Origin: a virus | Lineage: Duplodnaviria; Heunggongvirae; Uroviricota; Caudoviricetes | Direction: 5' to 3' (one strand) | IMG/VR virus record: IMGVR_UViG_2529292734_000016 | DNA length: 28,326 nt | In this document: one piece after another, positions 23,700-27,950 of the stretch | How the letters are laid out: each line of letters begins with the position of its first letter | How positions within the stretch are numbered: position 1 is the first letter of the stretch | The notes under the pieces: model-generated | What the model was told of the DNA's origin: nothing | The model's database searches: none | Seen by the model: only the letters and a program-made list of their open reading frames with translations | Translations under genes and position numbers: made by a program

Positions 23700-24170
23700 A
23701 TGCATCGTATAGACACGAAAACCGCGCAGAAGGATAAGTTCGGCGCGGGTAAGAACGGTTTTACCCGTGGTAACCCCCAGACCGGCACGCCTGCCACCGA
23801 TCTGGATGATGACTACTTTGACATGTTGCAGGAAGAACTCTGCAGCGTGGTGGAGGCATCCGGTGCCAGCCTGGAGAAGGGGCGGCACGATCAGCTTCTT
23901 ACCGCGCTTCGTGCGCTGCTGTTAAGCCGCAAGAATCCGTTTGGCGATATCAAATCGGATGGCACTGTGCAAACGGCTCTCGAAAACCTGGGAATGACAG
24001 ACATTCTGAATGATAAACAGGATAAAAATGATAATCTGACATCATTGTCGAGCTTAACAGGAATACCGGATGGGCTGGCATTTTTTACAGGTGCCAGAAC
24101 AATGGATATGACAGCGCTGACTCAAAATGGCAGGGAAATTTTAAGTAAAAAAACGTATCGGAAACTCTAA
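23700..24170 (+). CDS. Tail fibre protein, N-terminal baseplate-attachment part (short, possibly truncated by recombination)
   Basis: N-terminus [26 protein letters not shown] resembles side-tail-fibre N-termini; composition turns AT-rich at about 23990 and the ORF stops after 156 aa. Confidence 0.55.
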
Positions 24171-24205
24171 AATATTTAACACTTGGGGATGGAACAGGAA
24201 GGCTT

Positions 24206-24799
24206 TTGGGGGTTCAGGCATTTGGATCATCTGGGACTTATATCAAATCACCTGATGTAACGAAAATTATAGTGGAAGCCGTTGGCGGAGGTGGTGCCAG
24301 TGGTAATTTGTCGGCAACTGCATCTGGTAACTGTGGTGTAAGTGCTGCCGGTTCCAACGGGGCATATGCTAAAGCATTTTTTTATCAGTCTATACCTGAA
24401 TCCGTGCAAGTAACTATTGGAAGCGGTGGTGTAGCAGGAACAGGACCAGGAGGCTCTGGAGGTGACGGCGGGAATACAAGCTTTGGTGATTTGCTTGTAT
24501 GTCCGGGAGGAAGGGGATCAACTCAAGTTCAGCAGGTACCTCCATTTTCAGGGGGAAGTGCAACAGAAGCACCAATTCCTACAGGGCAAGGGATTCTGTT
24601 CCATTCAGTTTCACGATCAAATTTATGTGGGGCACTTGGACTTGGTGATGATCAGGCGATTGGCGTTGAAAGTATAACCACTACTATGCTTGGGATATAC
24701 GGTATTGGCGGGACAGGTAAATACAATAAGGCGTCATCAGGTCCAGCGACAGGAAATAATGGAAATCAGGGATATATTCTTGTGTGGGAGTATCAGTAA
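24206..24799 (+). CDS. Glycine-rich putative tail-fibre distal / receptor-binding protein
   Basis: TTG start (no in-frame ATG before it; in-frame stop at 24146-24148); Gly/Ser/Ala-rich runs (GGGGASGN, GSGGVAGTGPGGSGGDGGN); AT-rich region. Confidence 0.45.
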   Translation: MGVQAFGSSGTYIKSPDVTKIIVEAVGGGGASGNLSATASGNCGVSAAGSNGAYAKAFFYQSIPESVQVTIGSGGVAGTGPGGSGGDGGNTSFGDLLVCPGGRGSTQVQQVPPFSGGSATEAPIPTGQGILFHSVSRSNLCGALGLGDDQAIGVESITTTMLGIYGIGGTGKYNKASSGPATGNNGNQGYILVWEYQ

Positions 24800-25005
24800 T
24801 GAGCGATATTTATGCAGTCGTACAAAATGGTGTCGTTACAAATCTTGTTGTATGGGATGGTAAGTCAGAGTTTAAGCCAGAAAAAGCGGATATGGTTAAA
24901 TGTGTTGGAGATGTTGGTATTGGCTGGTCATATGACGGTGAAAAATTCATTAAGCCTTCCTTAAAACCAGATGTAGTTACTCCTCAAGATGAGTTAGTCA
25001 GTTAA
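24799..25005 (+). CDS. Small hypothetical protein coupled to the Gly-rich gene (possible fibre accessory protein)
   Basis: TAATG stop/start overlap at 24797-24801; 68-aa product; followed by a terminator. Confidence 0.35.
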   Translation: MSDIYAVVQNGVVTNLVVWDGKSEFKPEKADMVKCVGDVGIGWSYDGEKFIKPSLKPDVVTPQDELVS

Positions 25006-25049: not shown

Positions 25050-25416
25050 CTTCTGCAGTAATGGATGAAATACCGCGAGTATAATGTTTTTATGCATATG
25101 AACCGTTTAAACCAGAGGAATCCTGACGAAATTGGTTATTGCGCCGAGAGTTGTCGGAGGGGGTGATATAGGTTATCTAATGGAGTAATCATTTTAACAT
25201 TAATCAGTTTCCCCATGACATCCTCTAAACCCTATATAAACGATTTCCTGCTACTGGCATTCAAACGAAATAATTTGAAAGCAATTTAAAGAGTTATTTG
25301 TCTAATGTTGGAAGCCGCAGCCACGTCGTATGCAAGAACGTGCTGCGGCTGGCTGGCGAACTTTCGATAGTGCGAGTATTGAATGATTTCCAGCCGTTAC
25401 CGATTTTACGTGTTAA

Positions 25417-25665
25417 TTAGTGAACAAACCACTCGTCAGCAGATTCCCAGGTATCTTTCAGAGTCTCCTGAACAAAAGTTTTTGCAGAATCCTTATCTGC
25501 GGTGCGTGTAACAGAAAGGCTATCGTTGCTGGTGGCTTTTACGATCACCTCTACATCGTCATAACGTTTACTGATGCGTCGGGTTAATTCTTCCTTTAAC
25601 GCATCCACAGCACCGGTTGGCATTTTAGTCATTTTTTCTTTGGCTATGCAGATTTCAATACGCAT
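25417..25665 (-). CDS. DinI-like DNA-damage-inducible protein (prophage-encoded)
   Basis: 82-aa product starting MRIE and ending [10 protein letters not shown], a DinI-family signature; GAGGGA RBS; LexA boxes in its upstream region. Confidence 0.8.
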
Positions 25666-25678
25666 AAAAGTCCCTCTA

Positions 25679-25698
25679 TACTGTGTTTGTATACAGTA
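25679..25698 (-). promoter_or_regulatory. LexA box (SOS operator) 1: TACTGTGTTTGTATACAGTA
   Basis: Exact CTGT-N8-ACAG with consensus flanks, 14 bp upstream of the DinI-like start codon. Confidence 0.7.
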
Positions 25699-25706
25699 TT
25701 ATTTTT

Positions 25707-25726
25707 AACTGTATGGATAAACAGTG
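25707..25726 (-). promoter_or_regulatory. LexA box 2: AACTGTATGGATAAACAGTG
   Basis: Second CTGT-N8-ACAG palindrome 8 bp from box 1, abutting the integrase stop codon. Confidence 0.6.
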
Positions 25727-26824
25727 TCAAGAGGTCTTATTTCTGCTCCTTTGGAGCTCTTCAAAACGATTATGTAAAGATTTCGGATACAGTTCGGTAT
25801 ATACCTGCCATAGCACGTTTAATGAACGATGCCCTGTAACCTGGGCGACTTCCTCAATACTAAAACCAGCCTCAAATAAGCGACTTGCCCCTTCTCTACG
25901 CAAATCATGGTATCGCAGATCCTTAATACCTAATTTGCTTCTTACCCTCTGAAATCCCGCAGTAACAGAAGTGCTGTTATATGGAAAAATGAATTCCGAT
26001 TTTTGGGGCTGTCGTTGGACGATATCCCAGGCTTCCCCAAGCAAGGCTACTTTCATGTGGTTGCCTTCCTTTTTGCGTGGGTCTTTCCTGTCTCTTACGA
26101 GTATAGATTTTTGTTCCTGGTCGAGATCTTCCCATCGTAACCGGCATACTTCTCCGATTCGCATACAGGACCACACAGAAAATTTGAGGATATCAACGAA
26201 CGGAATTTTTGAGCATTTATGAGTAGATCGTTGTTGAAGGCCTTCAATGAGCAGGTCCAGTTCATCAGATGCTGGTCTACGATTACGACGGTTTGATTTA
26301 CCAATCAAACCAAGTTTAAGTAGATATGGACGAGCACTTTTCGCCGGGTTTGATGTGTAATTAATTCCGTATACAGGTTTGGCCGCATCCAGAACACTGC
26401 CAAGATAACTAACATCGTGGCTGACTGTTGCTGGACCTGCGCCAGCGTTGTTTCTTAGCCTGCAATGTTCAATTACGTCATTTTCTGTCAGTTCAGATAG
26501 TTTGATCGCGGATATGTCACTATCCATAAGCAGTTCCAGCACATATCTTTTAGTACGGCCTGCTTTACCTCCGGCATTTGGGTCATTTAAATATTTGTGT
26601 AGTAAGTCACGGACTGTAAGTCCGTCAACTGCATTTGATGATGGAATGCCATATAGATCTAATTCCATCACTTTCTGTGTGCCCCATGTTTTGGCATGAG
26701 CATGTTTAGGGAATGTTTTGCTTTCCCTGTAAGTGATAACACCTTTTTCTTTGATAATCACATTACAGCGATAGCGTGGTGTGCCATCGGATTTTAGTCG
26801 TTTCTCTATGTTATAGTACGCCAT
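25727..26824 (-). CDS. Tyrosine-type site-specific integrase
   Basis: 365-aa protein whose C-terminal region has the spaced Arg/His/Tyr catalytic pattern (RIGE...HDLRR...Y) of phage integrases; divergent from and adjacent to dusA. Confidence 0.9.
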   Translation of the reverse strand: MAYYNIEKRLKSDGTPRYRCNVIIKEKGVITYRESKTFPKHAHAKTWGTQKVMELDLYGIPSSNAVDGLTVRDLLHKYLNDPNAGGKAGRTKRYVLELLMDSDISAIKLSELTENDVIEHCRLRNNAGAGPATVSHDVSYLGSVLDAAKPVYGINYTSNPAKSARPYLLKLGLIGKSNRRNRRPASDELDLLIEGLQQRSTHKCSKIPFVDILKFSVWSCMRIGEVCRLRWEDLDQEQKSILVRDRKDPRKKEGNHMKVALLGEAWDIVQRQPQKSEFIFPYNSTSVTAGFQRVRSKLGIKDLRYHDLRREGASRLFEAGFSIEEVAQVTGHRSLNVLWQVYTELYPKSLHNRFEELQRSRNKTS

Positions 26825-26912
26825 TACACGACCTCGTTATTTCGGGTTCCCATAAAACGTGGGAACCTGTGCGGGAACCTAACGCGAGAAAAATAGCCTG
26901 AAATGTTCAAAA

Positions 26913-27950
26913 ATGCACGATAATCATGAAACACAAAAAATTAATCAAACCAGCGTGATGCCTGAAAAAACTGGTGTTTACTGGAATTCTCGGTTTAGCA
27001 TTGCTCCTATGCTCGACTGGACGGACAGACATTGCCGCTATTTCTTGCGTCTGCTTTCCCGCAATACGTTGCTGTATACCGAAATGGTGACCACAGGGGC
27101 GATTATTCACGGTAAAGGTGATTACCTGGCGTACAGTGAAGAAGAACATCCGGTAGCGTTGCAACTCGGCGGTAGCGATCCGGCGGCGCTGGCACAGTGT
27201 GCGAAGCTGGCAGAAGCGCGTGGATATGATGAGATCAACCTGAATGTCGGCTGCCCGTCTGACCGGGTGCAGAACGGCATGTTTGGTGCGTGTCTGATGG
27301 GTAATGCGCAGCTGGTTGCCGACTGTGTGAAAGCGATGCGCGATGTGGTGTCGATTCCAGTGACGGTGAAAACGCGTATTGGCATCGATGACCAGGACAG
27401 CTATGAATTTCTCTGCGATTTCATCAACACTGTTTCCGGCAAAGGCGAGTGTGAGATGTTTATCATCCACGCACGTAAAGCCTGGCTTTCGGGGTTAAGC
27501 CCGAAAGAAAACCGTGAAATCCCGCCGCTCGATTATCCGCGTGTGTATCAACTGAAGCGTGACTTTCCGCATCTGACAATGTCGATTAACGGTGGTATCA
27601 AGTCGCTGGAAGAGGCCAAAGCACACCTGCAACATATGGATGGCGTGATGGTCGGGCGCGAGGCGTATCAGAATCCGGGTATTCTGGCGGCGGTAGACCG
27701 GGAGATCTTTGGTTCCTCGGATACCGATGCCGATCCGGTGGCGGTAGTGCGCGCCATGTATCCGTACATTGAGCGTGAACTCAGCCAGGGGACGTATCTC
27801 GGCCATATTACCCGGCATATGCTGGGTTTGTTCCAGGGTATTCCTGGCGCGCGGCAGTGGCGGCGTTATTTAAGTGAAAATGCCCATAAAGCGGGTGCTG
27901 ACATTAACGTGCTGGAACACGCGCTCAAACTGGTGGCGGATAAGCGTTAA
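26913..27950 (+). CDS. dusA: tRNA-dihydrouridine synthase A
   Basis: TIM-barrel Dus motifs ([28 protein letters not shown]); followed by pspG as in enterobacterial chromosomes. The true start may be the internal ATG at 26958 (MPEKTG). Confidence 0.85.

Follow-up and report, generated by a model that had tools for sequence, protein, structure and literature searches.

A putative LexA-repressed DinI-like cassette with two operators at the integrase end of an SfV-like dusA prophage

At the integrase end of an SfV-like prophage of the dusA type, a gene for a DinI-like protein appears to form a self-contained cassette that is repressed by LexA and inducible by the SOS response; we put the probability of this reading at roughly 85%. 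The arrangement is best explained as a unit made up of a predicted sigma-70 promoter, two LexA operators, a ribosome-binding site, the 82-aa DinI-like gene and a terminal hairpin. What is said here about regulation is drawn from sequence, conservation and homology; from these we infer LexA occupancy, induction by DNA damage and any benefit to the phage or its host. The relevant features of the window (the whole 28,326-bp stretch of viral DNA that was analysed) are as follows.

26913-27950, beyond the integrase: dusA (NCBIfam DusA, E 6e-175).
25727-26824, minus strand: tyrosine integrase of the dusA-targeting type (Pfam Phage_integrase, E 7.8e-21).
25666-25726: intergenic gap of 61 bp, from the integrase stop to the DinI-like ATG.
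25725-25730, minus strand: -35 hexamer TTGACA, a perfect match (consensus scan; 10 of 12 promoter matches overall).
25707-25726, minus strand: distal LexA box, 20 bp, AACTGTATGGATAAACAGTG on the plus strand and CACTGTTTATCCATACAGTT on the gene strand, heterology index (HI) 6.34.
25701-25707, minus strand: predicted -10 element, either TAAAAA (17-nt spacer) or AAAAAT (18-nt spacer), from the consensus scan.
25679-25698, minus strand: proximal LexA box, 20 bp, TACTGTGTTTGTATACAGTA on the plus strand and TACTGTATACAAACACAGTA on the gene strand, HI 4.95.
25671-25677, minus strand: AGAGGGA, the Shine-Dalgarno sequence of the DinI-like gene, seen directly in the DNA.
25417-25665, minus strand: DinI-like gene (82 aa, 82 codons), ATG at 25665-25663.
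25313-25350, minus strand: G+C-rich hairpin, a probable transcription terminator at the 3' end of the cassette (folding and homology boundary).

On the minus strand the integrase gene (26824 to 25727) is followed by the gap (25726 to 25666) and the DinI-like gene (25665 to 25417). The integrase reading frame ends with a TGA codon at 25729-25727. Together with the 4 nt upstream of it, which belong to the last integrase codons, the gap reads TTGACActgtttatccatacagtTAAAAAtaaTACTGTATACAAACACAGTAtAGAGGGActtttATG on the gene strand (5' to 3'), and the TGA within its TTGACA is the integrase stop. The remainder of the window is occupied by late and tail genes of an SfV-like myovirus. As dusA lies beyond the integrase and the late and tail genes are SfV-like, the prophage is inserted in dusA and its integrase is located next to the junction. 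Such placement of dusA-targeting integrases is already known (PMC4482086), and phage 1720a-02 is one example (PMC6328086). The integrase-DinI pair is found likewise in phages SKA5, mEp460 and 1720a-02.

Two observations concern the insertion site itself. The first ~35 codons of dusA in the window (26825-27020) differ from what we take to be the usual N-terminus of E. coli dusA, and SKA5 carries a short phage-borne "tRNA-dihydrouridine" reading frame next to its integrase. The difference fits the known replacement of the dusA 5' end by dusA-targeting elements upon integration. In E. coli PEC122 (locus L166, 16419-17074) only about 4 kb separate the dusA insertion site from the lexA-dinF operon of the host. 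The far end of the prophage, away from the integrase, is thus close to lexA, the gene of the repressor that would control the cassette; this closeness is probably a coincidence.

The earlier note, made from the sequence alone, had described two CTGT-N8-ACAG palindromes in the gap upstream of the DinI-like gene. Both are present as quoted, and the two boxes occupy 40 of the 61 bases of the gap. The window contains two matches to this pattern, both in the gap, against 0.34 expected; since two or more matches were reached in 7 of 100 shuffles, the count taken alone is weak evidence. The weight-matrix scoring proposed in the same note was decisive. The matrix was derived from 18 documented E. coli K-12 sites (PMC3009722, Table 4) with symmetrised counts and a Lewis-type HI; owing to the small set and the symmetrisation, the HI values given here are comparable, not identical, to published ones. 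Known LexA sites scored by leave-one-out have a median HI of 7.3 (range 2.0-17), and the values of 4.95 and 6.34 for the two boxes fall among them. Each box is a 20-bp match to TACTG(TA)5CAGTA at the score of proven sites and can be classed as an Enterobacterales LexA operator.

The proximal box is the best-scoring site of the window, and the third-ranked site has an HI of only 15.5. Among 1000 random windows of equal length from a first-order Markov model, the best site averaged HI 14.5 and none had an HI of 6.34 or lower; two sites with HI of 10 or lower within 60 nt did not occur in any of the 1000. As a positive control, an unrelated piece of E. coli chromosome was scored, and the matrix recovered the two operators of the host lexA gene there. 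In SKA5, the closest phage record, the complete 37.6-kb genome has no LexA-like sites other than these two boxes. No further LexA sites that could serve the integrase or the late genes were found below HI 15 in the window or anywhere in the SKA5 genome, and the matrix scan found no LexA-like site upstream of int.

Both boxes are positioned to interfere with transcription initiation at the predicted promoter, the one promoter that the consensus scan found in the gap. Its -35 hexamer contains the integrase stop codon and overlaps the distal box by 2 nt, and the distal box spans the spacer between the -35 and -10 elements. The proximal box begins three bases past the predicted -10 and thus lies across the predicted transcription start; 13 nt separate it from the ATG, and 41 nt separate the distal box from the ATG. 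Between the boxes is an A/T-rich stretch with the predicted -10. On this predicted promoter, therefore, the operators overlap the promoter and start of the gene that they would regulate. The -10 element is weak (four of six consensus matches), and the promoter scan of the region was not enriched, finding three promoters against 4.6 expected from shuffles. The depositors of the mEp460 record (JQ182728) annotated the identical promoter. We consider the exact -10 hexamer and the transcription start as predictions from consensus and conservation. No divergent plus-strand promoter under these operators was found in the consensus scan.

The boxes are well conserved. Both are kept in 57 IMG/VR loci whose DinI-like protein shares at least 98% identity with that of the window; in a handful of these loci the upstream DNA is wholly different, the switch occurring exactly at the -35 hexamer. 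For a cross-species scan, one genome per species was searched with a DinI-family alignment as the query. A LexA box within 150 bp upstream of the start codon was found at 77 of 80 DinI-family loci and in 4 of 313 control segments drawn from those same loci. In chromosomal dinI-type genes, whose product has the N-terminus MRIEVTIAKT, only one box precedes the ATG, at a distance of about 19 nt. The window gene is a member of the 82-aa "IAKEK" clade, in which two boxes are typical, one 13-15 nt and the other 39-42 nt from the ATG. The clade is represented in Escherichia, Shigella, Pantoea, Trabulsiella, Erwinia and Mixta, and the two-box layout is kept across several enterobacterial genera in different flanking DNA.

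Two exact CTG-N10-CAG boxes were found in 34 out of 41 unique upstream regions of this clade. Among these 34 two-box relatives CTG and CAG are invariant and the box centres vary, as expected of selection for LexA binding; the operators can be described as conserved in orthologous promoters with motif-like variation. The hexamer directly 5' of the distal box is TTGACA in 27 of the 34 and a one-base variant of it in the other seven. An A/T-rich stretch of 6-9 nt is present at the -10 position in diverged relatives too, and purine-rich equivalents of the Shine-Dalgarno sequence are present in relatives. The centre-to-centre spacing of the boxes is 28 bp in the window and ranges from 24 to 29 bp among relatives, which makes cooperative, phase-dependent LexA binding unlikely. 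What is fixed is the position of each box with respect to the -35 and -10 elements rather than of one box with respect to the other. This argues for two operators that would act independently, each positioned on the promoter, rather than for a helically phased pair.

The product of the gene is a clear member of the DinI family. It matches Pfam DinI (PF06183) over profile positions 1-63 of 63 (E 1.9e-19; 70.2 bits against a cut-off of 24.2), and the E. coli DinI structures 1GHH and 7YWA are matched at E 2.8e-13. It is 49% identical to E. coli DinI and 41% identical to the Gifsy-1 DinI homologue. With 73.5 bits against a cut-off of 111, it falls below the NCBIfam DinI equivalog model (NF007893), and we regard it as a DinI-like paralogue, not a DinI orthologue. 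The cryo-EM structure of the RecA-DinI complex revealed a hydrophobic pocket formed by L13, L21, W71, W77 and F78 and an acidic patch of E24, E69 and D76 (PMC9926225). The aligned residues of the DinI-like protein are M15, L23, W73, W79 and F80 in the pocket and E26, D71 and E78 in the patch, i.e., five of the eight RecA-contact positions are identical and three are conservatively replaced. Since the groove-binding residues of DinI are kept, RecA-filament binding is the most likely activity, and judging from these contacts the protein very probably binds RecA filaments. DinI at stoichiometric amounts is known to stabilise them (PMC9926225).

Taken together, these data suggest the following mode of regulation. 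As long as the cell is undamaged, both operators would be bound by LexA dimers. The distal one, which takes up the space between the -35 and -10 elements and overlaps them in part, and the proximal one, located over the transcription start, would each exclude RNA polymerase, and both together would be expected to repress tightly. After DNA damage, activation of RecA would lead to LexA self-cleavage, the promoter would open and the DinI-like protein would be made; it could then bind RecA filaments and alter their stability or co-protease activity. Two operators may reasonably be expected to give tighter and later expression than that of the single-operator host dinI. The central proposal of the earlier note, SOS control of the DinI-like gene via two LexA operators, thus gains support from the strength of the sites, their overlap with a sigma-70 promoter, their conservation, the DinI-family protein and the precedent of the Gifsy prophages.

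The 3' end of the cassette is marked by the hairpin, which starts 66 nt past the DinI-like stop codon. The downstream region that contains it (25250-25430) folds better than shuffles (z = -2.96), and the hairpin segment alone has a predicted energy of -22.4 kcal/mol. All 13 sequence variants, folded separately, keep a stable stem (-14 to -24 kcal/mol). RNAalifold recovered six pairs from the hairpin variants, which contain single-base indels, and an alignment that included distant loci gave no common hairpin structure. No known RNA family was found in the window by Rfam at the gathering threshold. Past the stem, the variants of mEp460 and O157 read TTTTTCTTTTT, and stem and T-run together resemble an ordinary intrinsic terminator. 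The window reads CTTCCAACATT at this place, a degenerate U-tract lacking a U-run; here recombination just past the stem has replaced the T-run. With the T-run lost, termination in the window prophage may be leaky, and transcripts may extend antisense into the tail-fibre region.

Two side observations concern the DNA next to the hairpin. Next to the cassette the window retains no more than the final ~46 bp of a DNA invertase gene (25228-25273); at that place SKA5 (locus L002, 2411-2974) carries the complete invertase gene along with a tail-fibre segment that can be inverted. The tail-fibre genes of the window (23700-25005) differ from those of SKA5. The window prophage appears to have lost most of a tail-fibre switching module.

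About 105 nt past the stop codon are common to many phages, and homology ends right after the stem. At the other end, the homology boundary in other genomic contexts is the -35 hexamer. Homology that begins at the -35 hexamer and ends at the hairpin points to a self-contained, mobile, SOS-inducible cassette. Having its own promoter, a putative terminator and sharp boundaries across unrelated contexts, it can be assigned to phage morons. Full-length copies (at least 80% of the cassette) are present in 1512 of 5426 complete E. coli genomes (about 28%), and any match to it in 5245 of them; the E. coli matches number 11,390, and a single genome has up to nine matching places, partial matches and a widespread remnant being counted. 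The cassette is present in many Stx-converting phages. In 3531 records the best match, at 80-90% identity, is a short fragment. Every sampled match of this class turned out to be an unannotated remnant of ~150 bp, ~86% identical, in which the last part of a DinI-like gene survives together with its hairpin. In one examined locus of the E. coli chromosome (L163, 2501-2649, corresponding to window positions 25323-25474) it is located between ykgJ and ecpE. Presumably, this remnant is the fossil end of an ancient prophage.

A different view of the intergenic region is that the operators act mainly on transcription reading through from int, either as a LexA roadblock or via RNA structure, so that the DinI-like gene is reached or translated only during SOS. 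The earlier note had also suggested an influence of the boxes on integrase read-through. The scan found no terminator-like site between int and the DinI-like gene, the integrase stop lies inside the -35 hexamer, and the folding of the intergenic RNA is stronger than that of shuffled sequence (z = -3.15). Low folding energy is to be expected of two palindromic operators anyway, and the predicted accessibility of the ribosome-binding site is much the same in read-through RNA (0.41), promoter-initiated RNA (0.38) and RNA with a shuffled head (0.41). Concealment of the ribosome-binding site by read-through RNA was modelled and rejected for this locus, accessibility being equal to that of the controls for the window sequence and its pattern inconsistent across 18 contexts. 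Moreover, the promoter-operator unit also occurs with no integrase upstream. In the copy from O157:H7 MB41-1 (locus L164, 3354-3620), which has both boxes and the -35 variant TTGATA, it is the last gene of a prophage next to ssrA, is preceded by an intrinsic terminator and adjoins the type III effector genes espW and espM2; other contexts are known as well. Therefore, the boxes belong to the DinI-like gene rather than to the integrase, which is the upstream neighbour and is outside the cassette. We found no evidence for an effect of the boxes on integrase read-through and consider this view very unlikely.

It is still less probable, indeed barely so at all, that the cassette is the first gene of a Gifsy-type operon, in which a LexA-controlled dinI homologue is followed by a small antirepressor triggering prophage induction. 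No same-strand reading frame of at least 30 aa exists within 412 bp past the DinI-like stop. The only one of at least 20 aa wholly within these 412 bp is a 26-aa ATG reading frame (25136-25216) located some 200 nt away, beyond the conserved hairpin at which inter-phage homology stops. Besides, the repressor encoded by SKA5 and by a sister prophage in E. coli PEC122 is of the CI type and contains an S24 self-cleavage domain, so no antirepressor is needed, and the window protein shares only 41% identity with the Gifsy-1 homologue. Finally, we find it hardly credible that the palindromes are chance matches or serve another protein (a phage repressor, an integrase/Xis arm or IHF) with the gene outside SOS control: the bare pattern count is, as noted, only weakly significant, but the matrix scores and co-location were never reached in random windows, variation among relatives is LexA-shaped, LexA boxes precede nearly all DinI-family genes including chromosomal ones, and the recombination site, at the dusA junction, is more than 1 kb distant, beyond the other end of the integrase gene.

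Sister prophages encode a 108-aa protein which consists of a LexA DNA-binding domain only (Pfam LexA_DNA_bind, E 2.9e-19) and has no cleavage domain. It is 43% identical to the N-terminal domain of the host LexA and keeps the recognition-helix residues S39, N41, A42 and E45. In these relatives the gene is located at a place that corresponds to about 1.2 kb left of window position 1, outside the window (PEC122, locus L166, 2226-2552, minus strand; SKA5, locus L165, 8484-8810), and the protein is found in 61 phage records including SfV, SfII, SfIV, cdtI and Stx2c phages. As a repressor that escapes cleavage, it could recognise the two boxes of the cassette as well.

This leads to a broader speculation, which we rate as rather unlikely. 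The cassette might be a mobile SOS module exchanged by lambdoid and SfV-like prophages that gives lysogens an extra, tightly repressed RecA-filament binder only under strong damage and so reshapes the timing of SOS across co-resident prophages. In addition, its boxes might be read by the uncleavable 108-aa phage protein as well as by the host LexA, the former re-silencing the cassette or host SOS genes in lytic growth.

The authors of a Stx2a-phage study speculated in passing that the DinI of such a phage might limit induction (PMC8456039). In the sole genetic test that was found, prophage induction was not significantly altered when the dinI homologue of Gifsy-1 or Gifsy-3 was removed by a non-polar deletion (PMC3121763), which makes a role in induction doubtful and speaks against the suggestion of the earlier note that the gene could tune it. 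No measurements of LexA binding, transcription start or induction for the cassette were found in the searched literature, nor was a description of its operators; the mEp460 record marks the promoter only.

An extra SOS-induced DinI-like protein could alter the stability of RecA filaments and hence mutagenesis, repressor cleavage and the induction of toxin phages after antibiotics. As the gene is almost certainly repressed by LexA via two operators, its product should be sought under strong SOS conditions. The region also provides a compact promoter with two separately mutable operators.

LexA control of dinI is textbook knowledge. The dinI box is listed among the LexA sites of K-12 (PMC3009722), and LexA control of prophage dinI homologues is already known as well; what is found here is two operators and no downstream antirepressor gene. 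The cassette adds no new regulatory principle and can be considered an ordinary example of a known arrangement with a minor architectural twist, the two operators.

The chromosomal dinI genes of E. coli and Salmonella resemble the cassette in belonging to the same family and in having a LexA box between promoter and start codon. Their single strong box is found about 19 nt before the ATG (PMC8072944, Table 1), while the cassette has two strong boxes, the distal one fused to the -35 hexamer, and its gene is phage-borne and mobile.

The dinI homologues of Gifsy-1, -2 and -3 are likewise prophage genes directly behind a LexA-controlled promoter (PMC3121763). Replacement of the LexA-box region abolished mitomycin C induction (PMC3121763, Lemire et al. 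2011), and genome-wide work showed that the Gifsy homologues are damage-induced 4.6- to 23-fold, each having one box 19 nt from the ATG (PMC8072944). The Gifsy PdinI-gfoA/gftA operon is located in the early region and continues with an antirepressor gene and irsA, and prophage induction depends on it (PMC3121763). In contrast, the cassette has two boxes and no downstream gene, is located at the integrase end of SfV-like and lambdoid E. coli prophages, and its closest phage relatives have a self-cleaving CI-type repressor; its protein belongs to a DinI subfamily different from that of the Gifsy-1 homologue (41% identity).

Tum of coliphage 186, with split versions in Fels-2 and PSP3, is another LexA-controlled phage gene product with a DinI-like C-terminal half (PMC3121763). 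Tum is 146 aa long and has an antirepressor half, whereas the 82-aa window protein is DinI-like throughout. More than one LexA box per promoter is a feature shared with lexA (two boxes) and recN (three boxes), as listed for Salmonella (PMC8072944). The cassette differs from these multi-operator SOS promoters in its spacing (28 bp, 24-29 bp among relatives) and in the fixed position of the boxes relative to the -35 and -10 elements.

Comparative work on HK97 and HK022 defined phage morons as autonomous promoter-gene-terminator units in prophage genomes. Classical morons were described as being expressed from the repressed prophage. The cassette is similar to morons in having its own promoter, a terminal hairpin and sharp homology boundaries across different phages and contexts. 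Unlike classical morons, it would stay silent until SOS.
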